IMG/VR virus record: IMGVR_UViG_3300027719_000011
Length of the DNA stretch: 41,741 nt
Strand: one strand, 5' to 3'
Source: a virus
Part shown: piece by piece, positions 1 through 40,249 of the stretch
How positions within the stretch are numbered: position 1 is the first letter of the stretch
Layout of the letters: every line of letters starts with the position of its first letter
The notes under the pieces: generated by a model
Seen by the model: the letters and a program-made list of their open reading frames with translations, nothing else
Told to the model about the DNA's origin: nothing
Databases searched by the model: none
Position numbers and translations under genes: made by a program

Positions 1-127
1 CCAAATTCTAATTTGATTTTGGGCATCAGAACACCTCAAACATCATTTCGGTACCGGCCAGAACAATGTTGGCCAATTCTGCGCCGAGTGTGATTGACGA
101 ACTTGAGGTTTCAGTATAACCTGTGGC
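1..127. repeat. Terminal direct repeat, copy 1. It is identical to 41615..41741 and looks like a circular-closure overlap.
   Basis: Comparing the first and last lines base by base shows bases 1..127 equal to 41615..41741. The repeat lies inside coding sequence, at the junction of ORF 26..514 and ORF 40249..41640. Confidence 0.95.
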
Positions 128-514
128 CAGACGGGTGCCGTTCATATAAACGTGCAAGCCGCCAGTTCCAGGAGTGTAGGTAGGAGTCGCGAAAACTGCC
201 TGGCCGTTTGAAGTGGCCACAACAACTGTCGCAGGAGTAATGGCTCCACCACCCACAGTAAAATTGTCGATGGTGCTGACAATCGCATCGTCTGCATCGG
301 TGATAACGAGTTTGTACAAACCTGATCCAAATACCTTAGCGGTGCCGCGAGAATCCAGTATGATTGGTTGTGCGGCAGGGGTTGCCCCCGCGTAATCGGT
401 GTACATATTTTTGAGGGTAGTAGTCCCTGCGGCATAATGAAGCACCTTGCCAGCAGCGAGATTGGTTCCGTCGATGTCTTTAAGACCTGCGGCCAGTAGT
501 TGAATTAGTTGCAT
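26..514 (-). CDS. Tail-fibre or tailspike N-terminal-like virion protein (162 aa)
   Basis: The N-terminus (KDIDGTNLAAGKVLHYAAGTTTLKNMYTDYAGATPAAQPIILDSRG) matches a pattern I remember from phage fibre and tailspike N-termini. Its stop overlaps the ATG of the nozzle-like gene (ATGA) across the circular junction. Confidence 0.45.
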   Translation of the reverse strand: MQLIQLLAAGLKDIDGTNLAAGKVLHYAAGTTTLKNMYTDYAGATPAAQPIILDSRGTAKVFGSGLYKLVITDADDAIVSTIDNFTVGGGAITPATVVVATSNGQAVFATPTYTPGTGGLHVYMNGTRLATGYTETSSSSITLGAELANIVLAGTEMMFEVF

Positions 515-939
515 GGTGCCTCCCGAGTAATATCAAATATGTGCAAAGTTGCTTTATCGTCCTTCAGCAAGGCGGTTAAAACCCGAAAAGCTGACTCAGA
601 TTGGACGACATCAAATAGGCCGTCTGCATCCAGGTCGGCAAAACGGAGGCCGAGCAATAGGCAGCCGTGAGTATCGCGGGGGAAGTTACCTCTGTGCCCG
701 AGAATGCCCGAGCGGCCTTCAACCCCGTGGACTCTAAAATGGTCTTTAAACTTGGTGCTGACTTCGGAAGTGACCGCGTACACGCCTGTCGGTATGCAGC
801 TGACATTGCGCTCATTGTCGCGCCAGGGTAGTTCCAACACTGCGAATCGGCCAACTTCACTGACTCCATCATACACATGAAGCCAACCGAGTGTTCGGTC
901 AGCTTCTGTTCTCAATCTATCCAGCACCAGTTTTTTCAT
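505..939 (-). CDS. DUF5675-like protein, putative endolysin with a YkuD-like H...GC signature
   Basis: It contains LELPWRDNERNVSCIPTGVY and GILGHRGNFPRDTHGCLLLG, which fit the remembered DUF5675 pattern. It sits directly after small membrane proteins, as in a lysis cassette. The enzymatic role is inferred. Confidence 0.5.
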   Translation of the reverse strand: MKKLVLDRLRTEADRTLGWLHVYDGVSEVGRFAVLELPWRDNERNVSCIPTGVYAVTSEVSTKFKDHFRVHGVEGRSGILGHRGNFPRDTHGCLLLGLRFADLDADGLFDVVQSESAFRVLTALLKDDKATLHIFDITREAPCN

Positions 940-942
940 ATC

Positions 943-1164
943 TTACCCCTTGTCATGCTTGCGAATAAATCTTTTCGCGTCTTCATCATGGCGCTCAATG
1001 TGAAGCATTATCAGCGTCTCGATGTCGTTCCGGTTCTGCAGCACCTGCTCTTCGATCTTCTGTGCAAATGTGGTGATCTTCATGTAAATCTTTGCAAGCC
1101 CGAGTACAATTCCCAATGTCGGTACGTGTGTTAAAACGACTTTTAATATTTCGGCTTCTGTCAT
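943..1164 (-). CDS. Small single-TM protein, lysis-associated (holin, antiholin or spanin-like)
   Basis: It is 73 aa, with a hydrophobic segment (VPTLGIVLGLAKIYM) followed by a charged helical tail. It lies 3 nt upstream of the endolysin candidate. Confidence 0.4.
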   Translation of the reverse strand: MTEAEILKVVLTHVPTLGIVLGLAKIYMKITTFAQKIEEQVLQNRNDIETLIMLHIERHDEDAKRFIRKHDKG

Positions 1165-1269
1165 AATCTCTCAATTCTCCGTCAGGCAGTTTGTTAAGCG
1201 CAATCAAGACCAACGCTAATACAAATATGTCACACATGTTGCACCTCATAATCCTATTGTACCTTAGAA

Positions 1270-1560
1270 CTAACGTTTCCTCAATAGCTGCAATATCTCG
1301 TCTATGTCCCTACGTATCTGCGTAGTTTCTGCACTGGCGCGATCTTCACAACGCTGCATCTGAGGCAACGTAATAACATATCCACAGCACCAGACCGCAA
1401 ATAGCGCACACGGTAACCCAATCAGTAGTAGGCTTGTGCTGCTCAGATTCAGGTAGCCTTTCAGCGTGGTGGATTGCGCGAGTAGCAGTGCAAGGTTTAC
1501 CAGCCCTACGATCTGATAGCCTCGGTCGATTCGATATTTTTGTTTGAATAGCCATTGCAT
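1270..1560 (-). CDS. Two-TM holin-like membrane protein
   Basis: It has two hydrophobic segments (IVGLVNLALLLA and LLLIGLPCALFAVWCCGYVI) and a charged C-terminus. I prefer the ATG at 1560 over the GTG at 1563 because a GGTGG Shine-Dalgarno sits upstream. Confidence 0.45.
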   Translation of the reverse strand: MQWLFKQKYRIDRGYQIVGLVNLALLLAQSTTLKGYLNLSSTSLLLIGLPCALFAVWCCGYVITLPQMQRCEDRASAETTQIRRDIDEILQLLRKR

Positions 1561-1714
1561 CACGCCACCACTTCACGAATTGCATTGAGTCCACTGACGG
1601 TCATTCAGAATCTCCAGTCTGTCCAGACTGCCCACTCATGCCGATTCACACCGACATTGAGTGAGCCGAAACGTTTAACAATCAGCTTATCGCGGAACCG
1701 AAACTGTTGAAGGT

Positions 1715-2173
1715 TCAGATCCGCGAGAGGAGCTTTCCCAGAAGCACATCGAGCTGGTCATCAACCCATTTGTTGAGGTCGGCTTTGTAAAAGCCTGAGA
1801 GAGCTTTCAACCGATCTTTGGCTATGCTATTGGCGCGGGCTTTGAGAGTTGCCCATTCTGTCTTGTCAATCTTGCCGTCTGTCAGAGCTTTCTGTGCTTC
1901 AACAGACAGCTCGCCGAGAGCTTGAGTCAGCGCATCGGCTACAACTGCCGCGCCCCTGAAGTGCATTAATTCTTTCAGGTAGGCATTGAGCAGAGGGATT
2001 GCCTGTTTAACTAGGAAACCCAACATAACCGCAAGACCCGCCCAAAGTGCCTGGAGGATCTGAGAAAGTATTGTCGGCTCGACTGCAGGAGTATCAGCAG
2101 TAAGCTCCGCAGTCTGAGCAGAACCCATGGTTACGATGAGAAGAAAGAGAACGACAAATAAAAGTTTTTTCAT
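1715..2173 (-). CDS. Membrane or secreted protein with a signal peptide, a second TM and a helical domain; possibly an LL-H-type holin
   Basis: It starts MKKLLFVVLFLLIVTMGSAQT, then has the TM segment LWAGLAVMLGFLV and an alanine-rich helical tail (DGKIDKTEWATLKARANSIAKDRL). An AAGGAG RBS precedes it. Confidence 0.4.
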   Translation of the reverse strand: MKKLLFVVLFLLIVTMGSAQTAELTADTPAVEPTILSQILQALWAGLAVMLGFLVKQAIPLLNAYLKELMHFRGAAVVADALTQALGELSVEAQKALTDGKIDKTEWATLKARANSIAKDRLKALSGFYKADLNKWVDDQLDVLLGKLLSRI

Positions 2174-2184
2174 AAATAAGCTCC

Positions 2185-4155
2185 TTATGGAATAGTTCCG
2201 GTATCGTGGACGTTGTTGAATGGGGTCAAGGTTGAATCCGTCAGGTCGATGATCGCGGTCGTGTATGGGCCAGAAATATGATTGCCCTGAACGATGCCTT
2301 TCGATGTGCCTTGAGCATAAATGCCCATTGTCGCTTTGCCCGCTTCGTCGATAATGGTATTGCTATTGATTGCTAACTGGTACGAGCCAGATGCGATGCT
2401 GATACCCGCGCCAGCAGATGCCACCGATTCACTCTGATTTGGATTTATGATCGTATTGCCCGTAACGTTAAAGACAATGCCGCTCAAGCTTATGGAGTTC
2501 TTGTAGCTACCTTCAATCAGATTCCCAGAGATGCTGATGCCCTTTGAGCCGGTAATAAACGTGGTTCCCGCTATATCCGCCGCACCCACATTGCCTCGGA
2601 AATAGTTGTTGCTGATCACATATGCTCCGCCACGTGCAGCTACAATAGCCGCACTCGCATCAAGTCCGTTGAGAGCAAAAGTGTTGTTTTCAACCCGATA
2701 TGTATGCACGTTAGAAAAAGCCGTAAACAGACACTCTTTAACATTCCGCAAGAAGCTGTTTCCAGAAATGTTGATCTGACTGGTGACAGTAGCAACGCCT
2801 GCGATGTAGACCGATTCCTGAGTGCTTCCGCTGACACTGTTGTCTATAAAGTCAATGCTTTCCGCACGAACCAGCGCAGAGGTGAGCAATGCCCGCACGC
2901 AAGATTCAAACGTGTTATTTGACACGCTCAACCTTCGTGGATGGGACGCAATGCCGCTGCCCGGTGCGGTTACAAAAACCCCGCCTACAGGGACATTGAA
3001 GAAGTGATTATCAGACACGATAGCAGATCCGATCGGTTCATTAAAGGCTGTACCGGAAGTGGTAAATGTCACACTCCCGGCATTGTGAGTCTCGGTCGCA
3101 GTTGTCGGGCGGTAAATGTTGTTTTCAGTAAACACAATCCCGTCCCCGCCCGCAAATACGGCCGCCTGTCCGGTCAAGGTTTCAAACTTATTCCCACGCA
3201 CCACGATGTTGTCTGCGGCTAATGTCTTGTCAGTCGCGCCTCCTGAGCCGCCCGCACTGCTGATCGCGAAGTTGTGCCCGATGCCCACGGTCTCATTCGG
3301 CTGGGTCTTATGTTTGAATGAATTGTTCTCGATTGTTACATCTGCGCAGGCTGGGTACATTCGTACCGGATTCAGTGGGCCACCTGAATCAGTCCAGCGA
3401 TTGTTACGGATCAATGCTCCACGGGTGAACCAGAGCCACACTTCTGGCCCCTGGCCATCCCGAAACACATTGTTCTCGATAGTTACACCCCGATATGGGA
3501 AAGAATACGGGCTTGTCCAGTCGCCCTCAATAAAGCAAGTGATGAACTCATACCCTAACTTTGCGCCATTTCCGGCAGGGTTGCTGATTGTAAAGTCACA
3601 ATTCTTGATAGCCAATCCGCTGATTGTCTCAGAAGCAACCGTTGCATGCACGATTGCTGCGAGCTTGGTTTCTGTTACATCGGCGGCAGGATTCGGTGTG
3701 CCCGTCACATTGATATCCGCAATCACATTCTCAACTGTGACGTTGTTGCAATTCACGAACTCAAAAAGCCACATGCACTTCCCTGGAGTTGTCGCCGACC
3801 CCATGTCGAGGTCGCTGGTAAACTTTGCGCCGTCCATGCCTACGATTTTTACGTTGTCCACACCGGTTAGCTTGAAAGCACTCCACAAAACACGGGAACC
3901 CTCAGAGGTGGCTGCACCCGCTGGGACTACCCCATATGTTCCGCCGGGGATTACGAATGTCACATTGCCGCCAGCGGCTTGGATATAGGCTGCGGCAGAA
4001 GCAAGAGCCGGGGCATTATCGAAGCCTGCCGTTGCTCTCGCACCAAATGTTCGGAAGTCAACAACGGGTGTCCCCTGCAACTGCAACCAATGCGGTCTGG
4101 TTTGCGCGGATAAGCACGAAGAAAGTAGAAAAAAGGCGATTAAAAGCTTTTTCAT
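2185..4155 (-). CDS. Signal-peptide right-handed beta-helix protein, pectate-lyase or depolymerase-like
   Basis: I start it at the MKK codon (ATG 4153..4155), which has an AAGGAG 7 nt upstream; the ORF track start at 4179 would add 8 residues. The signal peptide MKKLLIAFFLLSSCLSAQT is followed directly by a Pectate_lyase_3-like start (FGARATAGFDNAPALASAAAYIQAAGGNVTFVIPGGTYGV) and many N/G/I-rich beta-helix coils. Confidence 0.65.
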   Translation of the reverse strand: MKKLLIAFFLLSSCLSAQTRPHWLQLQGTPVVDFRTFGARATAGFDNAPALASAAAYIQAAGGNVTFVIPGGTYGVVPAGAATSEGSRVLWSAFKLTGVDNVKIVGMDGAKFTSDLDMGSATTPGKCMWLFEFVNCNNVTVENVIADINVTGTPNPAADVTETKLAAIVHATVASETISGLAIKNCDFTISNPAGNGAKLGYEFITCFIEGDWTSPYSFPYRGVTIENNVFRDGQGPEVWLWFTRGALIRNNRWTDSGGPLNPVRMYPACADVTIENNSFKHKTQPNETVGIGHNFAISSAGGSGGATDKTLAADNIVVRGNKFETLTGQAAVFAGGDGIVFTENNIYRPTTATETHNAGSVTFTTSGTAFNEPIGSAIVSDNHFFNVPVGGVFVTAPGSGIASHPRRLSVSNNTFESCVRALLTSALVRAESIDFIDNSVSGSTQESVYIAGVATVTSQINISGNSFLRNVKECLFTAFSNVHTYRVENNTFALNGLDASAAIVAARGGAYVISNNYFRGNVGAADIAGTTFITGSKGISISGNLIEGSYKNSISLSGIVFNVTGNTIINPNQSESVASAGAGISIASGSYQLAINSNTIIDEAGKATMGIYAQGTSKGIVQGNHISGPYTTAIIDLTDSTLTPFNNVHDTGTIP

Positions 4156-4159
4156 GCGC

Positions 4160-5176
4160 CTACTCCTTATACCAAACAAGAGCTACGAAAGGCTTAGAAA
4201 GAATATTCTCGCTGTTGGTTGTATGGTTTTGCACTTGCACTGTTGTTGCGTCAAATAGCCACGAATATTCAAGGCCGACACCAGCGCCCATTGTAGTTGT
4301 AAACCCTGAGCCAAGAGCGGAGTTTGTGTCATAAAACACTTGGACTGACACACCGACAATTTTGGCTCCGGTCAATCCGTGGGCAACGCTGCCTGCCGAA
4401 CCTTCTGCTGCTGCTGTGGTTCCTTCTAACACTTTCATCTTAACAGGCGTAGAACCTTGTCCAATGCCAACATAGCCGTTAAGCTTCGTAAGGACAACAG
4501 AGTCAGAACCAAGGGTGACAGAGTTATCACCAGCACCAATGGCATCATAGCCTATAACAATTTCGTTGTCTGAACCATTTTCTAAAGCTCTAACGCCTCT
4601 GCCAATAAATACACTATGGTTCACTTCAGTCAGATACCCAAGAGTTTGATATGTTCCTGCGTTTCTACCTATCATAACATTGTTAGAGCTTGCACCACCG
4701 GTCTGGAGTGCCTGAAGTCCTATACCAATATTGTATTCGCCTGTTGAACCCTCCCCGGCTTCATGCCCAAGGAATACATTGTATCCACTTGTGGTTATAG
4801 CCTTGCCTGCTCCTGAGCCAGCCGCGAGGTTGCCAATCCCTGTGGTTACATTCTGTAAGGCATGGTATCCAAGGGCAAGATTATAACCACCTGTTGTAAT
4901 CTTCCACATTGGCGCATTTTCACCACTCGGCATCTCTGGCATACCAAAGCCCATGTTGTGCACCCCGGTAACGGTGGAGTTACCGCAACCGCCGGCAAAC
5001 ATATTGGTTCCTGTAGCCGTCAGCGCATCAAACCCATTGAGCTGGTATTTAAGCGAGTCTACCGAGGTGAAGGATGGAGTTGCACTGATTTCGGGCGGAG
5101 GAATCGTAGGGCCGCCTGCAAACGCGATGACGACTGAGGTCAGAAGCAGAAAAATGAGTGTGAATTTTTGTTTCAT
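4160..5176 (-). CDS. Signal-peptide protein with YadA-head or fibre-like N.A.G repeats
   Basis: The signal peptide is MKQKFTLIFLLLTSVVIAFA. It carries repeats such as GYNLALGYHALQ, GNLAAGSGAG, YNVFLGHEAG, YNIGIGLQALQ and DNSVTLGSDS. Confidence 0.55.
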   Translation of the reverse strand: MKQKFTLIFLLLTSVVIAFAGGPTIPPPEISATPSFTSVDSLKYQLNGFDALTATGTNMFAGGCGNSTVTGVHNMGFGMPEMPSGENAPMWKITTGGYNLALGYHALQNVTTGIGNLAAGSGAGKAITTSGYNVFLGHEAGEGSTGEYNIGIGLQALQTGGASSNNVMIGRNAGTYQTLGYLTEVNHSVFIGRGVRALENGSDNEIVIGYDAIGAGDNSVTLGSDSVVLTKLNGYVGIGQGSTPVKMKVLEGTTAAAEGSAGSVAHGLTGAKIVGVSVQVFYDTNSALGSGFTTTMGAGVGLEYSWLFDATTVQVQNHTTNSENILSKPFVALVWYKE

Positions 5177-5179
5177 AGT

Positions 5180-5638
5180 TTATTCCCCCCAGGCTGTAAA
5201 GGTCGCGGTAGCTACAGCGGTACCATTTACCATCACCGCAAAATTGATCTTCGACTGTTCAGGGCGACGAGATTCCCATTTGAAAGTTGATCCGTTGGTG
5301 ACCTTGGAACCCACATAGATGGTACCGGTAGCCAGATCAGTTGGGTGGTTGATAATCATATCCGCGCCAAAAGCGGTCATAGTGAAGCCCTTGGTTCCTC
5401 TGGGCAGAACAATGTAGTTGCTGCCCGGGTGATCCGCGATCCAAGTGGTGTAGGAAGAGGGTGCAGTTGAATAGATAAAGGTGGGAACCAAGTTACTCAC
5501 TGATATGGTGGCAGTGGCAGCGTTATTGGCTGCATAAGAGAGATAGCCTGCATTCTGATCCTGCTGTACTGCCGTATCACAGAATGCGTTAGATGCGATC
5601 AGGGTTACAAAAAGCAGAGTCATCAGAATGTATTTCAT
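5180..5638 (-). CDS. Small signal-peptide beta-rich protein (152 aa)
   Basis: The signal peptide is MKYILMTLLFVTLIASNAFC. An AAGGAG RBS precedes it, and it is tightly packed with its neighbours. Confidence 0.5.
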   Translation of the reverse strand: MKYILMTLLFVTLIASNAFCDTAVQQDQNAGYLSYAANNAATATISVSNLVPTFIYSTAPSSYTTWIADHPGSNYIVLPRGTKGFTMTAFGADMIINHPTDLATGTIYVGSKVTNGSTFKWESRRPEQSKINFAVMVNGTAVATATFTAWGE

Positions 5639-5654
5639 TTAAAATCTCCTTAAA

Positions 5655-6341
5655 TTAGACAGGGTAAACGAAAAAGGTGTCTTTGGTCGCATGACTTTTG
5701 CGCTGTGCTTCATCGAGCAAACGCTGATATTTACCGTCGAGATACCCACACCGCTCAATCGGGAGTGCGTATTCGTCGGCCAGTCGGGAAGCGAGACCGT
5801 AGATCAGAACATCTGTCCACAGCTCGTCGAATATCTGAGTGTCGGTACCGTTGCCTGCATTGGCCTGCTTAACCAACGCACGGTAATAAAGGGTGCAGTC
5901 TACCGGGGTAATGGGGTAGAAGGTCAAAGCCACTGAAGCCACGTTCAATGTGGATCTATCGAACTGTGCCATGGCCACTGTGGGGTTTGATATTTCTATC
6001 GACTTGTCGCTGAAAGCCTGATCGAAAAAGTTGGAATCAACCAGGCGAATCGGAGAATCCAAGCCATCGGCGGTGCGGATAAAACAGTTGAAAAGGTCGA
6101 TAATGTCGCTGGAACCGGTCAGAGCAATGGATCGAGTGCTGGCCGGGAGCGCCTGTGTGCGCTGGACGATGTTCCAACGCAGTTCTGTAGATGCCTGTAA
6201 ATGCTTAATAAGCCCCTCAAGAGCTTGAGCGGCTTCTACAACCTGTTCTGGTTCGGGTAAATCCCCTTGGGAGATTACTGCACACTTACGCAGAGCAGCT
6301 ATGATGATATTATCGCGTGTGACCGTGAAGGTGTTCGCCAT
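5655..6341 (-). CDS. Head-to-tail adaptor (P22 gp4 / T7 gp11-like)
   Basis: The N-terminus (RDNIIIAALRKCAVISQGDLPEPEQVVEAAQALEGLIKHLQ) resembles the start of P22 gp4 (LVRAALRKLGV...). It lies downstream of the capsid gene and has an AGGAGG RBS. Confidence 0.55.
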   Translation of the reverse strand: MANTFTVTRDNIIIAALRKCAVISQGDLPEPEQVVEAAQALEGLIKHLQASTELRWNIVQRTQALPASTRSIALTGSSDIIDLFNCFIRTADGLDSPIRLVDSNFFDQAFSDKSIEISNPTVAMAQFDRSTLNVASVALTFYPITPVDCTLYYRALVKQANAGNGTDTQIFDELWTDVLIYGLASRLADEYALPIERCGYLDGKYQRLLDEAQRKSHATKDTFFVYPV

Positions 6342-6358
6342 TGTGGCCTCCTAAGCCA

Positions 6359-6385
6359 ACCCGCCCCCTTTATCAGGAGGCGGGG
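6359..6385 (-). terminator. Stem-loop between the 136-aa gene and the adaptor gene, possibly an attenuator
   Basis: CCCCGCC (6359..6365) pairs with GGCGGGG (6379..6385), and three further inner pairs are possible. Only UU follows on the minus-strand transcript, so this is not a canonical terminator. Confidence 0.35.
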
Positions 6386-6397
6386 TAGACTTTGAAG

Positions 6398-6808
6398 TTA
6401 CTTCTGAACTTCCGCGATGACCCTGGCTACTACACTCGCTGTCCCGGTCGCGTTGTTTACAACGTAAATGTCGGGAGTAGTTTCACCGGGATAGATCGGG
6501 ATTCTGAGATATCCGTTGGCTGCGATTGTCGGCCAGATGCCATCAGTAGAAGTGGTAACTGTGCTGGAACCGTAGTTGATCGCACCACCTTTAGCTGTGA
6601 TTATGATCGCCACAGTCCCTGCTGGAAGTGCGCTGATCTTCTGGGCAGCATCTGTGATAGCGATAGTGGAGGTTGCAGGGTTTGCGTAACCTGTGATGGC
6701 TCCAGTATTGCTATTAAGCGGGGCACCTTTTTGAATGGTGGACATGGTCTGAGAGAAACCGGCAGTAGCCAGCAGCATGAACACAAATAACATAGTGAAT
6801 TTTTTCAT
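6398..6808 (-). CDS. Small signal-peptide beta-rich protein (136 aa) directly after the capsid gene
   Basis: The signal peptide is MKKFTMLFVFMLLATAGFSQT. An AAGGAG RBS precedes it, and hairpins bracket it on both sides. Confidence 0.5.
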   Translation of the reverse strand: MKKFTMLFVFMLLATAGFSQTMSTIQKGAPLNSNTGAITGYANPATSTIAITDAAQKISALPAGTVAIIITAKGGAINYGSSTVTTSTDGIWPTIAANGYLRIPIYPGETTPDIYVVNNATGTASVVARVIAEVQK

Positions 6809-6832
6809 TGTATCTGCTCCTTGCAGTTAGTT

Positions 6833-6854
6833 AGGCCGCCCCGAAAGGCGGCCT
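6833..6854 (-). terminator. GC-rich hairpin just downstream of the major capsid gene
   Basis: AGGCCGCC (6833..6840) pairs with GGCGGCCT (6847..6854). The minus-strand loop reads UUUCGG, which is UUCG-like. No U-tract follows, so it is more likely a partial terminator or an mRNA-stabilising hairpin. Confidence 0.45.
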
Positions 6855-6864
6855 GTCAGGTTGG

Positions 6865-7905
6865 TTAGGCCGGTACGTAAGCTACAACAGCGTGAGAGGC
6901 ACGGTGGTTGGATGTAGAGGTGTCATCTGCATCGAGTCTGAGACCCTTCACACCGTAAATCATGTCTGAAGTTACGAGAGTAGCAAGGTATTCCTGCTTG
7001 TACTGTGCCTGAACACGTACATCCATCTGGATTGCGCTGCAAAGAGCATCTTTATGGGCAAGGATACACTGGCGAACAGCGGTAGTGCCATCGGCGGCAA
7101 AGTGCTGTGGGCAGTTGGTGGTAACCATGACTTTGATGCCATAGATTTCACCGAACATGCCAGTGGTCAGCTCTTTGGTGCGGCCAATGTTCTGGAAAAG
7201 GGTGAATTTGTCGATGCCGAGAAGAGCATTCTTCTGACTTGGAGGAATGAAGAGTGCGAGTTCGTCAGCAGGCACGTTGTTGTCTTCAAGTGACTGGATC
7301 ATGCGGCGCAGGCCTGCGTCAGTAATATCGGCTGCGTTACCGGCACCTGCACTGTTCCACTGAGTAACCCCGTCAGAACCGATTACACGGTATGCGGCGG
7401 GCAGATTGCCTGCGCCTGGTACCGATTCGGTGAAGGTGATCGCGCCAGTGGTACCGTCGATGACGACAGTGGCGGCTGGGATAGCCAACAGGTATGAATC
7501 GAGCAGGAGAGCAAGAGCGTGACCGGCTTTCTTGGTGTATTCACCGCGAAGGTCGTATCTCTGCTGAACCATGAAGAAGTCTTCATACAGCTTGGAAGCC
7601 TCGAAATGCTTGTCAAGCACGATGTTGATCAGACCTTCTTTCTGGGTCTGAATAGTTACAGCTGCGGTTGTCGCTTTGGCGAATGCTGCCATGTTGCTGA
7701 TGAAAGGTACAACAATGGTGTCGCCTTTTTTACCTTTGTGGTTGATGCGCTTGAAGAAATTAGCGGCCACAAGGTTTTTCTCACGCTGAATGAGAACTTC
7801 ATCGCTCCAGATTTTTGGAACGAAAGTATTGGCGGCCTGCTGGGCTGAACCAGCTGCGCCTGCTCCACCACCGACTGCGTTTGTTTGTGCGGGCCAAGTA
7901 GTCAT
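6865..7905 (-). CDS. Major capsid protein, HK97 fold, T7 gp10-like
   Basis: FVPKIWSDEVL and YDLRGEYTKKAGHALALLLDSYLLA parallel the remembered T7 gp10 segment YDVRSEYTSQLGESLAMAADGAVLA. It sits after the scaffold gene and has a strong AAGGAG RBS. Confidence 0.8.
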   Translation of the reverse strand: MTTWPAQTNAVGGGAGAAGSAQQAANTFVPKIWSDEVLIQREKNLVAANFFKRINHKGKKGDTIVVPFISNMAAFAKATTAAVTIQTQKEGLINIVLDKHFEASKLYEDFFMVQQRYDLRGEYTKKAGHALALLLDSYLLAIPAATVVIDGTTGAITFTESVPGAGNLPAAYRVIGSDGVTQWNSAGAGNAADITDAGLRRMIQSLEDNNVPADELALFIPPSQKNALLGIDKFTLFQNIGRTKELTTGMFGEIYGIKVMVTTNCPQHFAADGTTAVRQCILAHKDALCSAIQMDVRVQAQYKQEYLATLVTSDMIYGVKGLRLDADDTSTSNHRASHAVVAYVPA

Positions 7906-7923
7906 AGTAAATACTCCTTAAAA

Positions 7924-8961
7924 TTAGCTTCGGGTCTTCTGCTTCTGCTGTTCGGTATACCACGCCATGATCTCGGGCTGTCTACGTGCATACTCCTCCG
8001 GTCGGTTGAGTTGCATGTCGGCCAGCTGACCAAGCGTGAAAGACGGAACAGAGGTAGTTCTGGAAGCGGCTGGAACGCCAACAGCAGAACCCACGGGATA
8101 ACGGCGATCAACATTGGCAGGCATCGGCGCTGGGGCAGCGGGGGTCGGAGGTGCTGGGTTGCCAGGAACCTCAGATGCTGCTGTGCTTGCAGGAGCCAAT
8201 GTCTGTTTGTATGAATTGAGAATAAACTGGAAAGTTGCGGGATCAGTTTCTCCCTGGATCGCAATATGCTGGGGAACATTCGCTACAAGCCATTTGCCGA
8301 ACTCGGGCTGGGACATAATATCCTGAGCCGCTGCTACCTTGGCCTGAATAGTCTGCGCGTTGGCAGCCCTGTTCAGGTCATTAAACAGCTCCTGCTTGGC
8401 CTGATCACGTATCTTTTTTGCAAAGAGCGATGGAGTTGATAACATTTCGTTCAGCAGGGTTGCATCATCTTCCAGATTAGCAGCGGCTGCGGGAACAGTT
8501 GCTGCTGGTACCTTGTTCCGCTGCTCCATTTCTGGCTTCAAGACTTTTTCCTCGTACAGACGGCGGTACGCGGAAACCTCTGCATCATGTTCGCCTTTAA
8601 GACGTTCAAGATTCTTGTACGCCTCGTAGACGTCTTTCTTGCTTTTGCCCTTGAAACGGGGGTCATCAATGTCTTCCTCTGGGCCTGTCGCTACGGGTGC
8701 AGTCTGTACAGGTTCAGCTTGTCCTTGCGGGGCTGCCTGTGCATTAGGGTCACCTGCGGGTTCAAGGTTCTCCGGTGGTTGGACATCTTGAAAGTTTCCT
8801 TCCATCACAAACGGAGGTGGCTCAGTCTCAACGACTGTGGCCTCCAGGTCGCTCGGATCGAAGGGACGGGCTTCTTCCCGTTCACCGATAGAAATCATTC
8901 GGGCGCGATTCTCCGGTGTGGGTCGCACTGAACGCTGGGGCTGTGGCGGTACTCTTGCCAT
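7924..8961 (-). CDS. Scaffolding protein
   Basis: It is an acidic, Pro/Ala/Glu-rich, low-complexity helical protein encoded between the portal and capsid genes. Confidence 0.55.
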   Translation of the reverse strand: MARVPPQPQRSVRPTPENRARMISIGEREEARPFDPSDLEATVVETEPPPFVMEGNFQDVQPPENLEPAGDPNAQAAPQGQAEPVQTAPVATGPEEDIDDPRFKGKSKKDVYEAYKNLERLKGEHDAEVSAYRRLYEEKVLKPEMEQRNKVPAATVPAAAANLEDDATLLNEMLSTPSLFAKKIRDQAKQELFNDLNRAANAQTIQAKVAAAQDIMSQPEFGKWLVANVPQHIAIQGETDPATFQFILNSYKQTLAPASTAASEVPGNPAPPTPAAPAPMPANVDRRYPVGSAVGVPAASRTTSVPSFTLGQLADMQLNRPEEYARRQPEIMAWYTEQQKQKTRS

Positions 8962-8975
8962 CTTAAATAGACTCC

Positions 8976-9251
8976 TTATCGTATAACAGGGTTCTCGTTG
9001 GAATTGTCCTGCTTAGACCATTGTTCACGTAACAGCGACAGATCATCGAATATCTTCTGCAAATCTCTGATCGCTGCTATCTTACCCTGTACCTTCATAA
9101 AGGTGGTACCGGGGGCATTCTCCAATTCAAGTTTATACCCTTCCAGCTGTTCTGTCAATGCCGACTCTACAGCATGGAAATGTTCTGAATGTTTGAGACC
9201 TTCAAGTCCATTAAGTGTCTGTTCACGCACGGGGGGTACCTCCTGGAGCAC
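8976..9251 (-). CDS. Hypothetical small helical protein (91 aa)
   Basis: The ORF lies between the portal and scaffold genes and overlaps the portal 3' end by 29 nt. I recognise no motif. Confidence 0.4.
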   Translation of the reverse strand: MLQEVPPVREQTLNGLEGLKHSEHFHAVESALTEQLEGYKLELENAPGTTFMKVQGKIAAIRDLQKIFDDLSLLREQWSKQDNSNENPVIR

Positions 9252-11280
9252 TCATTGGCAACATTTCGCCGGGTTGAGAGCTTGGAACTTCAGGTGCTGG
9301 TTGGCTGGCGGCTCCTGGCATCGGTGCCCCGCCCATACCCGCGCCTACAACGCCGGGCAGGTTCTGCAACATGGCTTGTTCCATAGCCTGCTGCGGGTTG
9401 GGTATCACTCTATCCTTATCAAGACCTGTACCAATCGCTGCCCAGGCTTCCTGAAGCAGGTATCTGCGGTCAACCAGCGGGCCATCACTCGGGTTCGCTG
9501 TAGCTGCGAGAAAATTCATTATTTTGCCTGCAATATCCCGTTTCTGCATCGAAATCAGGCCGAGAGGGATAAATTCTGGCTCATCGGTACCCATCAAAGA
9601 CTCGCTTCCAGGAGGCAAACTTGATGCGAATAGGCCGGTCGGGATGTGTAAAACGTCCTGTGCGCCGGTCACCGGGTTGATTATCTGGGCCAGTTCCTCT
9701 GGATTCGGGTACATACTGATGATACGGGCATACCAGCAGTAGCTCTTCACCATGATATTCTGCTCAAAGTTGGAGGCCATCTCACGCACGATGCCCATCG
9801 CCTGACCCAGATTGGCCTGAGTTTCAGTAGCGGTCTGTTCGCCCTTCTTGCCCGCACCGCCGCCAACAACGGGCTTGATCCCGTGTGCTGAGTCGATGTA
9901 TCTTTCATACTCCTGCGCCTCGATGTAGGTGCCTTGAGTAACGTCCTGCACAGGCATCTGCTGAATGATGTCACCTGGCGGCCCTTCAGTCAGGAAGATT
10001 TTGCCGGGATAGATGCTCAGATCCTGGCCGCTGGTCAGCTTGCGCCGATCAGCTGCGAAGACCTGGTTGATTGCGATCGCTTTGTTATCAAGGCGACTTC
10101 TTACCGTAGCGTCGAGGGCAGCCTGTGGCCCCTGACTGATTTCAGCAATACCGATGCCATAAAACTCGTTCGGTACCTGCTCAAACCAGTCCTGCAGAAT
10201 CGGACGCTCGTTGTACCCGTACGCCGGTTCAATAGTCGACGGGTTGAGAACCGTTCCGTTGGCAACGATGATATGCATCTCTTTGCCTGTGGGGGTTCGG
10301 TCGTCGTCTTCATCCCCTTCGCCGTCATCGCCGCTCAACCCAGCTTCCTTCAATACATCTGCAGGAATCCAGATCATCGCTTCAAAAATCTCGACCTGAT
10401 CAGTCTCGCTGGAGGTCTGGATACCGATGCTGGAGAGTCTGCGCTGGAGAGTGTCGGTGGCTTCGATAGTCGGGCCTGAACTGTTTTCACGCTTCTTCGG
10501 CAACACTTCAATGGCTTTCTCTGCCAACATACGCCCGAGATCGCTTGGGCTTTTCATCGATCTGATGATTACACCTTCAGCGTTCTGCACGTTGGTCGCA
10601 GTCGGGTTCACGTACAAATTAAAAATAGAAATCGGCTCGGAGGTCGGGCGGGTGTAGTCCGTTTCCAGACGCTCCTGCACTTGCTCCTCACCGATCTGTA
10701 CAGTCCGATTGGACAGCGCGTCAAAGGCTATACGGGGCTGCGTGCGTGTTACGACCCTTTCCTTGGTCTCTACGATAGCCCTCTGTCGGAGGAAGCCCGT
10801 GCCATATATTGCCTGTTCAGTCAGATGCAACTTAACTTTGTTGCGCCAGTTCTCGCGGGCATGGAGCCAACGAATGTACTGACGAAGGTAACCGGGTCGC
10901 TTGTCTTCCGGTTGGTTTTGATGAAGGTCAAAATAAGGGTCTGCCGCAAACAGGATCTGCAGCATGGACGTCGTGTAGTTGGTTACAGCCTCTTTGGTCT
11001 TGGGCATCTTGAGCTTACTGCGCTCAGAGTTGCGGGTCTGATCCTGAGAGTCCTGGATACAACGCCACTGGCGGTAATATGCAAGCCACTTCTTCTCAAG
11101 CTGCGTCCTGGCATCGCGCCAACTGGCGAACTTGGCCTGCACATGTCGTGCAATGACATCGAGATCTATCTTTTTAGTCTGCTCGATACCTTCGCCGTCA
11201 TCGTCCATTTCTGGCAAATCGGGGTTGCCAACAGTGTATTCCACTTCGCCACTGGTTTCAGTAATTTCTGGGTACGCCAT
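9223..11280 (-). CDS. Portal protein
   Basis: It is about 685 aa and lies directly downstream of the large terminase gene. The N-terminal region (WLAYYRQWRCIQDS...SKLKMPKTKEAVTNYTTSMLQILFAADPYFDL) is typical of podovirus portals. I prefer the ATG at 11278..11280 (MAYPEITE), which has a G-rich Shine-Dalgarno; the ORF track start at 11337 has no room for an RBS. Confidence 0.75.
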   Translation of the reverse strand: MAYPEITETSGEVEYTVGNPDLPEMDDDGEGIEQTKKIDLDVIARHVQAKFASWRDARTQLEKKWLAYYRQWRCIQDSQDQTRNSERSKLKMPKTKEAVTNYTTSMLQILFAADPYFDLHQNQPEDKRPGYLRQYIRWLHARENWRNKVKLHLTEQAIYGTGFLRQRAIVETKERVVTRTQPRIAFDALSNRTVQIGEEQVQERLETDYTRPTSEPISIFNLYVNPTATNVQNAEGVIIRSMKSPSDLGRMLAEKAIEVLPKKRENSSGPTIEATDTLQRRLSSIGIQTSSETDQVEIFEAMIWIPADVLKEAGLSGDDGEGDEDDDRTPTGKEMHIIVANGTVLNPSTIEPAYGYNERPILQDWFEQVPNEFYGIGIAEISQGPQAALDATVRSRLDNKAIAINQVFAADRRKLTSGQDLSIYPGKIFLTEGPPGDIIQQMPVQDVTQGTYIEAQEYERYIDSAHGIKPVVGGGAGKKGEQTATETQANLGQAMGIVREMASNFEQNIMVKSYCWYARIISMYPNPEELAQIINPVTGAQDVLHIPTGLFASSLPPGSESLMGTDEPEFIPLGLISMQKRDIAGKIMNFLAATANPSDGPLVDRRYLLQEAWAAIGTGLDKDRVIPNPQQAMEQAMLQNLPGVVGAGMGGAPMPGAASQPAPEVPSSQPGEMLPMSAPGGTPRA

Positions 11281-11343
11281 TCCACAACCCCCCTGGTTTA
11301 CATAATACTTACTTCTTACATTACAGCACCCATCCACCGAGTG

Positions 11344-13137
11344 TCAATAGCCTGCCAGATCGTCGCTGGGTTGGTACCGATTCTGTTGCTGAAAGTCCTG
11401 CACACTGCGGGGACTACGATACTCCGCCGGTAGCTGTATCAGCCTGCGGACATCCTCGATCAAGTGATCGTCAGCGTCTTTCGGCTTGTTCAACTCGCCT
11501 TTATCCTTTGCGCCACCCGCTTTCCAGTCCTTCCACACGTACCGCCCGAGTTCCCATATCAGTCTGGTGCAATGGGGGTCGATAAACAGGCTGGGGACAC
11601 CGTTGCGGGACTTGAAAGCATCCTGCATAAGCTGGATGCCACTGGAAAGATCCTTGGAGCCAAAGTCGAGAGAGATGCCGTGATCGGCCAGCTTCTCTTC
11701 AATGACTTCAAACGTCGATTTGCCCCGGTTGGTATCGCCTTGGCTGGACGGGTCGATGATGGCCTGCTCAATCGGGTGGATGGTCTTGTGAAAATCAATC
11801 ACCCAATCCGCAACCTGCTCAGGACTGCCATGCCTGAAGATTTCGTGGCAGACGAACTGGTTGCCTCTTCGGTCTACCCACATGAAAGTGAGGGCTTGCT
11901 CGGTGCGCGGATGGGTGTCGATGGCCGCGTAGACCGTGCTGTCTCTGGGGGGTTCCTGGCAAGGCACTACATGGATAGCGGGTTTGAAGTCTTTGAATAC
12001 CAGACCCTGGAGATGTAGAAACTTACCCTGCATACGTGTCTCGCGCTCATCGGGGGTCAGTGCCGACTCAAAGCTGTCGATGTCTGCCGACTTGAGATGT
12101 GGGTTTTCTCTGCTGGCAGCAGTGATTGTCCAGATGGTCGGGTCGGCCTTGTTCACAATCTCGTCTGCAATCCACGGCTCTTTCAGCGGGGTCATTGAGA
12201 AAATGGAGATACCCGAATGATCGACCAGACCGCGCAGGTTGGCAACATAGACTGGCCGGGGCGGCGGCTCATCATACAGAGTCACATAGCCGTCCCAACC
12301 TTCCATCATGGCGGGATCCTGCTGGTACGTCAGAAAGTCGATGACCGAACCGTTCTGGAAGATCCAATGCGCCTCGATGCCAAAAGAGTTCTTCTTCTTG
12401 GCCGCGACCCACTCAGGTGCCACATACTGACGGAACTTCGGCAACTGCACCTGTTCCAGTGCAGTCATGTCCTCTGCAAGAACGCGAATCTTAATCGGAG
12501 GATTCCAGCGGAGTTTACCTGGGTCTGGCGGCGCGGCGCACAACTGCGTGAAGGTCTTTAGTTCCTTCTGGTTCTGGAACGTGCGGGCAAGGAGAACTTG
12601 CTGCTGTTTGGGCTTTTTGGGATCACCAACTGCCAGAGGTCGCCAGCCCATCAAGAACTGCTTACACTCGGCGGCGTGGTTGATGCGCCCGTGGAGTGCT
12701 GCGGGTAGTAAGGCTTCCTCGATCTGCTTATGAACCTCTGCAGGGTAGGCAACTGTAAATGTGTTATCCGAATGCATCTGCAAACTGGTTGGTTGAGGCA
12801 GCTGGACAGACGGCGGTTGAGGCACCCAGGGATACCGACCGATGGCCAGAGAGATAGCGGCTGCAACAGCTGCAGTCGTCTTGCCATACCGGTTGCCTGC
12901 AAGAAGGACAAACGCCTTGAGCGATGGATCCTGTAAGGCATCGAAGAATAACTGCTGCTTGGTGTGCGGCACGAACCTCTCAAGCTGGTGGGCATTGTGG
13001 TACCGGTTCGCCTGCTCAAGAAGTTCAAGCTTCTTCGCCTTGGCCTCGGTCAGGAGCGCCTGGATCATCTCAGGAGTCTGCGCCGGTTGGCCGCCCTGGC
13101 TGGGGACAACGTCCTTCCTTGGCTGCTTAGTTGCCAT
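11344..13137 (-). CDS. Terminase large subunit
   Basis: It has a Walker A motif (LAGNRYGKTT), a Walker B-like motif (VTLYDEPPP) and nuclease-domain acidic motifs (AIDTHP, IIDPSSQGD, DADDHLIED). It sits upstream of the portal gene. Confidence 0.9.
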   Translation of the reverse strand: MATKQPRKDVVPSQGGQPAQTPEMIQALLTEAKAKKLELLEQANRYHNAHQLERFVPHTKQQLFFDALQDPSLKAFVLLAGNRYGKTTAAVAAAISLAIGRYPWVPQPPSVQLPQPTSLQMHSDNTFTVAYPAEVHKQIEEALLPAALHGRINHAAECKQFLMGWRPLAVGDPKKPKQQQVLLARTFQNQKELKTFTQLCAAPPDPGKLRWNPPIKIRVLAEDMTALEQVQLPKFRQYVAPEWVAAKKKNSFGIEAHWIFQNGSVIDFLTYQQDPAMMEGWDGYVTLYDEPPPRPVYVANLRGLVDHSGISIFSMTPLKEPWIADEIVNKADPTIWTITAASRENPHLKSADIDSFESALTPDERETRMQGKFLHLQGLVFKDFKPAIHVVPCQEPPRDSTVYAAIDTHPRTEQALTFMWVDRRGNQFVCHEIFRHGSPEQVADWVIDFHKTIHPIEQAIIDPSSQGDTNRGKSTFEVIEEKLADHGISLDFGSKDLSSGIQLMQDAFKSRNGVPSLFIDPHCTRLIWELGRYVWKDWKAGGAKDKGELNKPKDADDHLIEDVRRLIQLPAEYRSPRSVQDFQQQNRYQPSDDLAGY

Positions 13138-13462
13138 AGTTGATTAGTGCCTGCAGTTCGTCAGACACCCCGGCGCAGGATTCAACAGCTGTGAATTGCT
13201 GAGTCGCTTCAGGTGTCTTGGAGGCTTCGACCCGTTCGCGGACAGTCACCAGCATACCTTCAGGGGAGTGACTGTACAACATCTCGATCTGGCTTGGTTT
13301 GAGACGGGTTTCGTGCAGGAACGCGACGAGGAGGGTCTGCTCCAGCGTTGTGGTGATGTCCTTAAACATCTTGAGGCTGGCTCGGACGACGGGATCTTCC
13401 GTGTTGGTCAGATCGCCAGTAACCTTCTGCTTCCAGGCTTTAAAAATGCGGGCTTCTTTCAT
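13127..13462 (-). CDS. Putative terminase small subunit, called by position
   Basis: This 111-aa ORF is the first gene after the late promoter and overlaps the terminase large subunit start by 11 nt. An AAGGAG RBS precedes it. I see no diagnostic motif. Confidence 0.35.
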   Translation of the reverse strand: MKEARIFKAWKQKVTGDLTNTEDPVVRASLKMFKDITTTLEQTLLVAFLHETRLKPSQIEMLYSHSPEGMLVTVRERVEASKTPEATQQFTAVESCAGVSDELQALINYGN

Positions 13463-13493
13463 ATTGGCTCCTTGTGTTTGTCATGTTAAGGTC

Positions 13494-13523
13494 ATTGTAG
13501 GTCGAACCCAGGTTACCGGTCAA
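13494..13523 (-). promoter_or_regulatory. Sigma70-like late-operon promoter
   Basis: The minus strand reads TTGACC (13518..13523), an 18-nt spacer, then TACAAT (13494..13499). This lies about 30 nt upstream of the AAGGAG RBS and ATG of ORF 13462. Confidence 0.5.
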
Positions 13524-13560
13524 GACGGTATTTTAGCTACGGGGTAGACCGGTATTTTAG
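13523..13560. repeat. Direct repeat AGAC(C)GGTATTTTAG, two copies, abutting the -35 of the late promoter
   Basis: The copies are at 13523..13536 and 13546..13560, read directly from the sequence. Confidence 0.6.
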
Positions 13561-14073
13561 TCGCGAGTCATTTAGACGCTATACGACCGCACATGTGCCC
13601 TCGACCCTACCCCTACCCCTCTCATCAACGTAATACAATGGCATACAATCGGCTGAAAAACGTAACACAAAGTAATAGGGTTTACATAATATCTATTATC
13701 AGGCCGTTTCAATCCTCGCAAATAGGCACGGTTGAGTCCTTGTTGCAAGGCACCATGAAATATTGCTGCAGGTGCTTACCAGATTCTGCGCTTTTATGCT
13801 GCAGTAGTATCATGGCGGCCAGGGTGCTTAGGAGGCTAGATGCCTTGTTCTAGTGGCTCTCGATTGCCGTTGCTCTCGGTAATCCGTTTAACCAGTGTCT
13901 TTGCGAGCTATAAAACGCGCAAAGCTACTGATATGCTATGGAGTCTATACTGGGGAAAATTTCCCTACCCTACATTATCCACCTGAGTAATAATTACCTT
14001 GTCTGCTCTCAACTATGCTATAAAGCTATTCTAGTCACAAACATTGGCAACCTGGCAGCCCGGAACAATTAGA

Positions 14074-14091
14074 TTGTGGTAAATTTACCAC
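14074..14091. promoter_or_regulatory. Perfect 18-bp palindrome TGTGGTAAATTTACCACA, a candidate protein-binding site
   Basis: It is read directly from the sequence. It lies in the ORF-free region between the early terminator and the late promoter. Confidence 0.4.
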
Positions 14092-14126
14092 ACATATAAA
14101 AATCCAGGTTGTCCAGGTAGCGCAAA

Positions 14127-14165
14127 ACAAAAGGGACAATACTAATAATGTATTGTCCCTTTTGT
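14127..14165 (-). terminator. Rho-independent terminator ending the minus-strand early operon
   Basis: A perfect 15-bp stem pairs 14127..14141 with 14151..14165 around a 9-nt loop. On the minus strand the GC core is followed by UUUUGUUUUG. Confidence 0.75.
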
Positions 14166-14187
14166 GGCCTAATTACTTTAAAACTCC

Positions 14188-14322: not shown

Positions 14323-14325
14323 AGT

Positions 14326-14625: not shown

Positions 14626-14640
14626 TTTTAAAACTCCTCT

Positions 14641-39845: not shown

Positions 39846-40249
39846 ATGACCCTCCAGCCGGTTCCGTCAGAATACAAATCTATCGCACAGTGCCCTATCA
39901 AAGTTTGAAAAGGCTCACCTTCGATTAACTCCCCTGTAACCGGATACAATAAAGTGCTTCCCGCATGAGCGTTATCAATAACCAGCGACCGTCCGTCCTG
40001 GCCCACCGCTGTAGGCAATGTAATCGTACAAGGAGCCGTCACTTTGGTCACATCTGTGGACACTGTGAGGCTTACACTTGTGATCTTTGTCGTTCGGGTC
40101 AGGCTCGACCACAAGATACTCAACAGCCCCGTGTCGAACATGCGCCGGTAGACCTCATACATCCACCTCGCCATCTCACGGACGCGCAGCTCTAAAGACT
40201 GACTGTCCAGGTTCTGCGGAGGAGGTTGAAGAGGAACTTTGGTCGTCAT
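39842..40249 (-). CDS. Hypothetical tail-associated protein (135 aa)
   Basis: It is translationally coupled between the nozzle-like gene and the 353-aa gene. Confidence 0.4.
   Translation of the reverse strand: MTTKVPLQPPPQNLDSQSLELRVREMARWMYEVYRRMFDTGLLSILWSSLTRTTKITSVSLTVSTDVTKVTAPCTITLPTAVGQDGRSLVIDNAHAGSTLLYPVTGELIEGEPFQTLIGHCAIDLYSDGTGWRVI

Follow-up and report, generated by a model that had tools for sequence, protein, structure and literature searches.

The stretch of DNA analyzed here, referred to as the window, is the whole of IMG/VR virus record IMGVR_UViG_3300027719_000011 (41,741 nucleotides). At 41.7 kb, it looks like the complete, circularly permuted genome of a lytic podovirus. 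Between positions 1,715 and 6,808, its late operon contains five minus-strand genes whose products begin with Sec-type signal peptides and very probably leave the cytoplasm. Four of the products are predicted to be soluble: two small jelly-roll proteins, a tail-fiber-like protein, and a beta-helix protein. The fifth is a predicted membrane protein. Judged by gene content and order, the block is a horizontally mobile module that is common to unrelated podovirus backbones and moves with the lysis cassette. The interpretation favored here, which is held with about even confidence, is that the four soluble proteins are Sec-matured, non-virion, glycan-targeting accessory factors and that the fifth protein is a membrane component of the lysis cassette.

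Signal peptides of the five proteins

An earlier sequence-only reading had reported five open reading frames (ORFs) at 6398..6808, 5180..5638, 4160..5176, 2185..4155, and 1715..2173. The coordinates, the minus strand, and the N-termini all proved exact, with 2185..4155 representing an ATG start within a longer TTG-initiated ORF (2185..4179). All ORFs of at least 60 aa were scanned by hydropathy and charge for a basic N-terminus with 10 strongly hydrophobic residues after it. Signal-peptide-like N-termini were found in only 5 of the 39 called genes, exactly these five; the scan flagged five other ORFs, each contained within a longer called gene and regarded as a shadow frame. By a combinatorial count over 39 genes, the chance that five signal-bearing genes fall within six consecutive late-operon genes is 195/575,757, or approximately 3e-4. 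The annotated starts are credible because the gaps to the upstream stop codons are tight (56, 16, 3, 4, and 11 nt), AAGGAG-type ribosome-binding sites precede the starts in four of the five genes, and homologues conserve the peptide sequence of the N-terminal segments.

The signals were assessed with a von Heijne-type scan, a crude method based on n-, h-, and c-regions and a site with small residues at -3/-1. All five window proteins have one or two K/R and no D/E before the core, an uncharged core of 14-18 residues with a mean Kyte-Doolittle value of 2.0-2.7, and small residues at -3/-1, with A or S at -1. The same Sec/signal peptidase I (SPI) architecture was observed in approximately 50 related proteins from 13 loci. 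A common targeting logic had been proposed on the basis of the shared MKK...[AS]QT form, and the wider set of proteins strengthens this proposal. Gln occupies position +1 in three of the five window proteins (GFS↓QT, LSA↓QT, and GSA↓QT, the arrow marking predicted cleavage) and in approximately 29 of 49 SPI-type signals (~59%), which come from 13 loci and at least seven unrelated families. Gln at +1 corresponds to the "Q-rule" of the FCB (Fibrobacterota-Chlorobiota-Bacteroidota) group of bacteria and matches the high-Q-value lineages of that group (PMC5837995).

The evolutionary signature of Sec/SPI signals is present in the alignments of three families. The family of the 136-aa protein (6398..6808; window sequence and 12 homologues, 41-92% identity) retains a signal peptide in all 13 sequences, with one or two basic residues, a core whose length and sequence vary freely, and a site of the form [AS]-Q-[TS] in which Q20 is invariant (13/13). 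In the family of the 152-aa protein encoded at 5180..5638, the signal is retained in all six aligned sequences (window and five homologues). In the 1715..2173 family, the first ~20 residues are hypervariable yet always signal-like, and near-invariance begins at A↓QELTADTPAVEPS (A↓QELTAD onward). Because the cores are hypervariable while conservation starts at the predicted cleavage site, the signals are predicted to be cleavable rather than to act as docking or anchoring helices. This pattern speaks against the earlier suggestion of virion proteins with uncleaved membrane anchors. Together, the n/h/c features and the conservation in homologues support the view of the N-termini as genuine, selected Sec/SPI signal peptides.

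Several more specialized signals were also considered. No C-terminal sorting domain of the type IX secretion system (T9SS; TIGR04183/TIGR04131 type) was found in the five proteins in an NCBIfam scan at E<=1, and the five proteins share no common C-terminus. The lipobox [LVI][ASTVI][GAS]C is absent from all five signals. Lipoprotein status of 5180..5638 was rejected: the N-A-F-C context of its Cys20 is unlike a lipobox, and the Cys is missing in a homologue (locus L081). The signal-anchor-release endolysin or pinholin type was rejected as well, the cores being rich in Leu, Phe, Ile, and Val and the five proteins containing no muralytic domain. The motif D[ST][AILVMT] is the general O-glycosylation motif of Bacteroidota. 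The exported proteins, in their mature form, show no enrichment of it (z=0.3 in the window and 1.0 in the other loci, with z=-0.75 in non-exported proteins), and Cys content does not differ between exported and non-exported proteins.

The sequence-only reading had also described exported proteins within a late operon as unexpected. The export features are borne out, but such proteins are not in themselves unprecedented, as lambda Lom and phi80 Cor illustrate.

Domain content of the four soluble proteins

The 136-aa protein consists of a signal (MKKFTMLFVFMLLATAGFS↓QT) followed by a predicted jelly-roll-like beta-sandwich of ~95 aa. Its AlphaFold2 (AF2) model has a predicted local distance difference test (pLDDT) score of 75, with 85-93 in the core. 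A search of the PDB with this model gave no match at E<1e-3 and merely generic jelly-roll/cupin similarity, and the 43 matches in BFVD are all uncharacterized phage proteins, mostly of 85-115 aa. A homologue follows the major capsid protein (MCP) gene in L084, L085, L086, and L081 as well. Homology of this family to a ~100-aa post-MCP protein of distant relatives was rejected (hhalign probability 0.1%). The 152-aa protein encoded at 5180..5638 (signal MKYILMTLLFVTLIASNA↓FC) has a predicted jelly-roll fold; its AF2 model (pLDDT 69) gives cupin/jelly-roll-like PDB matches that are generic, with a best E of ~1e-3. Since both small proteins match the same 137-aa protein of L112, they are paralogues.

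The 338-aa protein (4160..5176) comprises a signal (...VVIAFA↓GGPTIPPP), a central fiber-repeat domain, and a C-terminal domain of ~100 aa. It matches tail spike, virion structural, and decoration phrogs, and its center matches a Flavobacterium phage "tail spike" and a Pelagibacter phage "tail fiber". The 14,730 library matches are mostly giant repeat proteins that share the central repeat. The nearest full-length relatives (P0019 and P0025) bear signals and lie at the gp17 position of the T7-like phages L087 and L088. In the L084 orthologue, the signal and both termini are kept, and the center is swapped.

The 656-aa protein (2185..4155; signal ...CLSA↓QTRPHWLQLQGTPVVDFRTFGA) is a right-handed beta-helix protein (Pfam Beta_helix, 5.1e-16) and a putative polysaccharide lyase or hydrolase. 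The helix-start motif VVDFRTFGA is located ~12 residues past the predicted cleavage site, and the beta-helix begins ~20 residues past it. With the helix starting so close to this site, the protein has no particle-binding (anchor) domain. Only its first ~75-90 aa align with the counterparts in L084, L114, L099, and L088, and the remainder is unalignable; with the L084 beta-helix, alignment ends at ~75 residues. Pect-lyase_RHGA_epim or Beta_helix domains are found in the counterparts of L114, L087, and L091. No match to the 656-aa protein was found in cultured phages or among PDB sequences, and PDB sequence searches with the 338-aa protein and with the profile of the fifth protein gave nothing usable. 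By domain content, the depolymerase and the adhesin-like protein that had been offered as possibilities are both represented, the former by one beta-helix depolymerase-like enzyme and the latter by one fiber- or adhesin-like protein.

Split tailspike

The gene at 26..514 (minus strand) encodes a signal-less stub of 162 aa, in which a podovirus tailspike N-terminal anchor domain is joined to an Ig/TIG-like domain of ~70 aa, with no enzymatic part. In tblastn searches, stub residues 1-100 match the N-termini of tail spike, colanidase, or pectate lyase genes in 32 phage records. The matched tailspikes that were inspected have 673 and 711 aa and precede holin and lysozyme genes; the stub aligns with aa 4-85 of the 673-aa tailspike at 39% identity (E=3e-17). 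It also matches phrog_26190 and gives a weak TIG match. Because the anchor domain stands alone and the beta-helix is a separate, signal-bearing protein, the canonical tailspike is split.

The same split occurs on a second anchor family. In T7-like relatives, Phage_T7_tail N-terminal stubs of 212-262 aa stand alone, and those of L087, L088, and L091 directly precede signal-bearing fiber-like and beta-helix genes at the gp17 locus, where no other fiber gene was found in that position. The stub evolves like the backbone (50% identity over its full length, compared with 67% for the large terminase, TerL), while the beta-helix proteins are unalignable. In the signal-bearing proteins, conserved mature N-terminal peptides precede variable bodies (QT[RK]P.[WFY]..[IL]...P, GGP.IPP / NGP.P, PYDPGAAR, and TFTIKT.GASDT). 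Since small fibers of ~255 aa exist in distant relatives, the stub could also be a complete small receptor-binding protein.

A mobile module on unrelated backbones

Conservation of the block in related phages, a question raised by the sequence-only reading, was found both in L084 and in loci with other backbones. L084 has the window's own backbone, with a capsid protein that is ~95% identical, and conserves the first four signal-bearing genes in the order MCP, 139 aa (signal), adaptor, 152 aa (signal), 192 aa (signal), and 591 aa (signal). Runs of one to five signal-bearing genes that end in the same protein, with a signal and a transmembrane (TM) helix, and lie just upstream of lysis genes occur at eight further loci, on at least four other backbone types. 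The module-bearing backbones include T7-like phages (L087, L088, L089/L090, L091/L092, and L115), giant-LPD phages (L112 and L114), a giant helicase-fusion phage (L113), and a fragment (L099). The common layout is a signal run, the signal+TM protein, small membrane proteins, and then, where the contig reaches, an endolysin of varying type. In the T7-like podoviruses L087 and L088, relatives of the fiber-like protein are located at the gp17 locus, and every gene there begins with a signal. Distant capsid relatives (37-47% identity) have ordinary signal-less fibers in the equivalent region. In L081 (GC 0.60), where the signal style differs, the two small signal proteins are retained behind the capsid gene, and other proteins with signals are encoded elsewhere. 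Scans of IMG/VR gave few relatives.

The related loci show several other features. Giant proteins of 2777-3768 aa with LPD or helicase domains are encoded directly upstream of the block in L112 (1-7207), L114 (1-6371), and L113 (1-8782). In L091 (12090-14531), as well as in L092, the T7-type large terminase is split into ORFs of 419 and 174 aa by a GIY-YIG (SegE-like) homing-endonuclease-type ORF. The JGI contig Ga0209719_1000239 (84.6 kb; L089/L100/L103) carries the signal+TM gene twice, ~44 kb apart, and L090 (44.7 kb) carries the same genes; by gene content, the contig is probably a concatemer of one phage genome.

The fifth protein and the lysis cassette

The sequence-only reading had offered secreted or periplasmic effectors as one possibility for all five proteins, four of which are predicted to be soluble. 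The 152-aa product of 1715..2173 is predicted to be a membrane protein instead, because a second hydrophobic helix follows the signal. A cleavable-type signal is followed by an acidic N-tail of ~15 aa (QTAELTADTPAVEPT), one TM helix, and a conserved helical domain of ~95 aa. The acidic tail before the TM helix and the K/R after it place the ~95-aa domain, by prediction, in the cytoplasm. The protein has 163 homologues, and the 120 matches listed are 57-85% identical. A member of its family closes every signal-bearing run and directly precedes the lysis genes; homologues occupy the same position in L087, L088, L089, L091, L112, L113, L114, L115, and L099. No Pfam, NCBIfam, or PDB family was matched, and no cultured phage with a homologue was found. 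The TM helix and the position at the head of the lysis cassette would fit a holin, and no holin family was matched. A spanin role was rejected: only ~15 residues precede the TM helix, the main domain is predicted to be cytoplasmic, and there is no lipobox. Based on synteny, the protein belongs to the lysis cassette.

The remaining cassette genes are likewise on the minus strand. A 97-aa holin-like protein (1270..1563) has two hydrophobic stretches and no signal peptide, and its homologues come after the signal+TM protein in L112 (71% identity), L091, and L099. A 73-aa protein (943..1164) has one hydrophobic stretch, and its homologues adjoin the endolysin in L089 (59% identity) and L112. Both proteins have been co-transferred with the module. 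A 144-aa DUF5675 protein (505..939; Pfam DUF5675 1.4e-22, phrog_1501) takes the endolysin position of the relatives, in which this slot holds an Amidase_2, Amidase_3, glucosaminidase, or lysozyme-like gene, the last recognized by sequence reading. The slot suggests that the DUF5675 protein is a muralytic enzyme. True lipobox proteins (SFVGC, CTTGC) follow the signal+TM protein in L087 (13518-13874) and L088 (14053-14421) and are candidate o-spanins. The window has no counterpart of them, and its outer-membrane disruption step is consequently unaccounted for.

Host

Shine-Dalgarno (SD) motifs precede 31 of the 39 window genes, with the AAGGAG type in 20, and 67-100% of the genes in module-bearing loci (L084, L087-L091, and L112-L115). 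Among the Bacteroidota phages compared, they precede 5 of 46 genes in Bacteroides phage B40-8 and 0 of 14 in a Flavobacterium phage. This strong SD use argues against a classical Bacteroidota host. The Bacteroidota -7 promoter motif TAnnTTTG is weakly over-represented in the window (27 observed, 19.5 expected). High Q-values are typical of Bacteroidetes and are also found in Ignavibacterium (77%) and Chloroherpeton (55%) (PMC5837995). Because Q-rule-like signals coexist with strong SD use, the host is probably an SD-using diderm of the FCB group. The T7_gp14-type internal proteins, small single-domain endolysins, and lipobox proteins seen in L087/L088 also suggest a diderm host. L115 (CAYMRK010000017.1, 7.6 kb), the one contig that a genome scan gave, is binned to a Candidatus Saccharibacteria metagenome-assembled genome and is a T7-like phage fragment with the signal module and TerL; it is judged to be mis-binned phage DNA, with a hint of the host as the other possibility.

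Genome organization

The window has a single late operon on the minus strand, which runs from ~13,460 down to 26 and resumes from 41,640 to 32,699. The order of genes is TerL (11344..13137), portal (9223..11337), a protein at the scaffold position with no family match (7924..8961), MCP (6865..7905, directly before the signal-bearing block), the block itself, the lysis genes, the stub, a nozzle/hub protein (40249..41640), and ejection-type proteins. The last include a protein that matches a "DNA ejection" phrog (37482..38720), beside large proteins without family assignment. A gp4-like head-to-tail adaptor (5655..6341, minus strand; Pfam P22_Tail-4 with E=1.3e-3, below cutoff, phrog_637 Ad3, and phrog_12985) is also encoded among these late morphogenesis genes. 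It is interleaved in the block and has neither a signal peptide nor a hydrophobic N-terminus. In L081 (7991-9529), a 512-aa protein combines an InlB B-repeat-like domain with the adaptor part, which comes after it (residues 294-500, phrog_12985).

No terminal repeat, tRNA gene, or Rfam match was found in the 41.7-kb window. None of the cultured phages is similar to it at the DNA level, and the capsid proteins of freshwater cyanopodoviruses share only 25-31% identity with its own. A scan of window genes detected no integrase, and promoter-like or terminator-like sites show no excess in 1..14000, including the inside of the late operon. The status of the block as a lambda-type moron (Lom/Bor) was rejected given the lack of an autonomous promoter/terminator signal, the tight gene spacing, and the lack of a detected integrase. 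A GC-rich 9-bp hairpin with no U tract (6833..6854, minus strand; fold -23.1 kcal/mol, z=-2.1) lies 11 nt past the MCP stop codon. Downstream of it comes the AAGGAG site (6817..6822) that serves the 136-aa gene for ribosome binding, and the hairpin may be an attenuator or an mRNA-stability element.

Other features are located away from the block. A low-GC island (13500-16500; GC ~0.40, compared with 0.50-0.55 elsewhere in the window) contains a GP88-family gene (14641-15249), a RadC-like JAB gene (15680-16168), and a local TAnnTTTG cluster. A PAPS-reductase-domain protein (24334-25065), which is encoded among the replication genes, may have a role in DNA modification. The DNA polymerase A gene (28460-30592) begins within an HNH endonuclease gene (27843-28463). 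At 39671-39789, at the 5' end of a 353-aa gene after the nozzle gene, a 48-nt unit is repeated in tandem (2.5 copies, 70% match).

Functional interpretation and alternatives

The reading of the soluble proteins as non-virion factors is preferred because it takes the signal peptides in their plain meaning, has precedents in exported phage proteins, and is compatible with the small fibers of relatives. According to this reading, the five late proteins would leave the cytoplasm by means of their Sec/SPI signals. The two jelly-roll proteins, the fiber-like protein, and the beta-helix glycanase would reach the periplasm of a diderm host and be cleaved there, three of them probably to an N-terminal Gln able to cyclize to pyroglutamate. 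The soluble factors would then bind or degrade envelope or capsule polysaccharide of the infected cell, outside the virion. After lysis, they could act on debris and neighboring cells, with effects on egress, receptor or capsule stripping, and spread. The fifth protein would reside in the inner membrane in a bitopic arrangement, its short N-terminus in the periplasm and its helical domain in the cytoplasm, as part of the lysis cassette.

Several considerations weigh against this reading. It leaves the 162-aa stub, which evolves like a backbone gene and whose counterparts in T7-like relatives have 212-262 aa, as the sole receptor-binding candidate. The signal-bearing proteins show the classic pattern of receptor-binding proteins (RBPs), with conserved N-terminal peptides and swapped or unalignable distal domains. 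Why export should be of benefit is unexplained, since lysis would free the enzyme anyway. No signal for crossing the outer membrane was found (neither a T9SS C-terminal domain nor a lipobox), which leaves extracellular action before lysis unaccounted for. Finally, the two jelly-roll proteins are without an assigned role.

In the main alternative, which is regarded as possible but rather doubtful, the exported proteins would be virion appendages routed through the periplasm. The stub would be mounted on the particle in the cytoplasm, and the exported fiber, the beta-helix enzyme, and the jelly-roll proteins, the last as small adaptors or decoration proteins, SPI-processed and capped with pyroglutamate, would dock after holin triggering. 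Docking on the stub or the capsid would proceed through the conserved mature N-terminal peptides as holin lesions merge cytoplasm and periplasm, before outer-membrane rupture. The split tailspike supports this explanation, with a lone anchor that resembles the start of a complete tailspike and a separate signal-bearing beta-helix. The same split is present in the second anchor family, in L087, L088, and L091, with no other fiber gene at the gp17 position; the arrangement would have arisen on two anchor families. The contrast between a stub that evolves like the backbone and unalignable beta-helix proteins is also in its favor, as are the mature N-termini, which show a docking-peptide signature in being conserved from one backbone to another although the proteins otherwise diverge, and the ordinary fiber genes of distant relatives without signals. 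However, no tailed-phage precedent is known, and assembly would have to be accomplished within the seconds between holin triggering and outer-membrane rupture. Moreover, no stub lies beside the signal block in L089, L112, L113, and L114 within the DNA available, and the stub itself may be a complete receptor-binding protein, given the ~255-aa fibers in relatives.

Superinfection exclusion or receptor masking, in which the exported proteins would block or destroy the receptor or intercept incoming ejection machinery, is considered unlikely. Late exported proteins encoded beside adsorption and lysis genes, fast diversification that fits a variable surface glycan, and the precedents of T5 Llp, phi80 Cor, and T4 Sp make it conceivable. 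Nevertheless, none of the five proteins has a lipobox or an outer-membrane targeting signal, and genes expressed from a late operon behind the capsid gene would act too late to protect most of the cycle. Known exclusion proteins, in addition, are single small proteins rather than four-protein sets with fiber and beta-helix domains.

It is more improbable still that the hydrophobic N-termini are neither exported nor cleaved and serve as helices that dock or anchor ordinary tail proteins assembled in the cytoplasm, even though the fiber-like and beta-helix domains and the position at a tail-fiber locus fit this idea. A specific docking helix would show the reverse of the observed pattern, in which hypervariable cores are followed by conserved residues. 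About 50 proteins retain the n/h/c architecture together with small residues at -3/-1 and Gln at +1, and the tailspikes of cultured podoviruses and the tail spikes of Flavobacterium phages are without such a segment. An annotation artefact, with true starts downstream of the hydrophobic segments or functional signal-less isoforms from internal starts, carries a negligible probability: most homologues of the 136-aa protein do retain its Met22, which lies right after the predicted signal, but there is no enrichment of candidate start codons close to the cleavage site (10/28 observed, 0.43 expected), and the tight upstream gaps, the AAGGAG sites, and the peptide-level conservation of the segments in all homologues argue for the annotated starts.

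If the preferred reading of non-virion factors is correct, lytic phages deploy a previously unrecognized class of Sec-matured extracytoplasmic glycan-targeting factors. If, instead, the proteins are periplasm-routed appendages, the system would be categorically new, with virions completed by periplasmic parts. Either outcome has consequences for host-range prediction, as tail-fiber finders would mis-assign the signal-bearing genes, for the discovery of depolymerases, and for the understanding of lysis in FCB-group bacteria.

Comparison with known systems

To our knowledge, the accepted view is that every virion part of a tailed phage folds and assembles in the cytoplasm and that phage depolymerases are either virion-borne or released by lysis. 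The closest architectural parallels are the SP6/K1-5-type systems with an adaptor and separate tailspikes and the KP32-type two-RBP systems, whose tailspikes are signal-less and assembled in the cytoplasm. They likewise combine a stub of the gp17-N-terminal type on the tail with separate enzymatic RBP genes that have short conserved N-terminal peptides. In the module described here, by contrast, every distal protein carries a conserved Sec signal.

Signal-bearing proteins among morphogenesis or adsorption genes are familiar from lambda Lom/Bor, phi80/N15 Cor, and T5 Llp, which act in the envelope and not in the virion. These are single small outer-membrane proteins or lipoproteins, often encoded by morons or early genes, whereas the present block comprises four soluble SPI-type proteins (fiber, beta-helix, and jelly-roll) and a membrane protein, all co-transcribed in the late operon. 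T4 RI antiholin, which has a cleavable signal, and T4 Sp are exported phage proteins of the lysis and immunity system. The product of 1715..2173 resembles them in combining an export signal with a tie to the lysis machinery; no sequence relationship was found, and its bulk is predicted to be cytoplasmic rather than periplasmic. A bacterial parallel to the 656-aa protein is provided by Pantoea WceF and Erwinia AmsF, exported beta-helix glycanases of tailspike fold that remodel their own exopolysaccharide and are encoded in chromosomal exopolysaccharide operons. The export signal and the beta-helix are alike, and no sequence similarity was detected.

Prophages of Porphyromonas gingivalis encode proteins of unknown function that obey the Q-rule, with predicted SPI cleavage exposing Gln (PMC10367356). 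They differ in belonging to temperate siphoviruses of a true Bacteroidota host and in having no reported fiber or depolymerase content or module (PMC10367356). The phages considered here, moreover, use strong SD sites, unlike Bacteroidota phages. In the literature searched, no description was found of signal-bearing fiber or depolymerase modules in phages, nor of their pairing with a signal-less anchor stub. Phage-encoded exported proteins as such are already known, and it is the mobile, signal-bearing module of receptor-binding type, together with its stub, that appears to be new.

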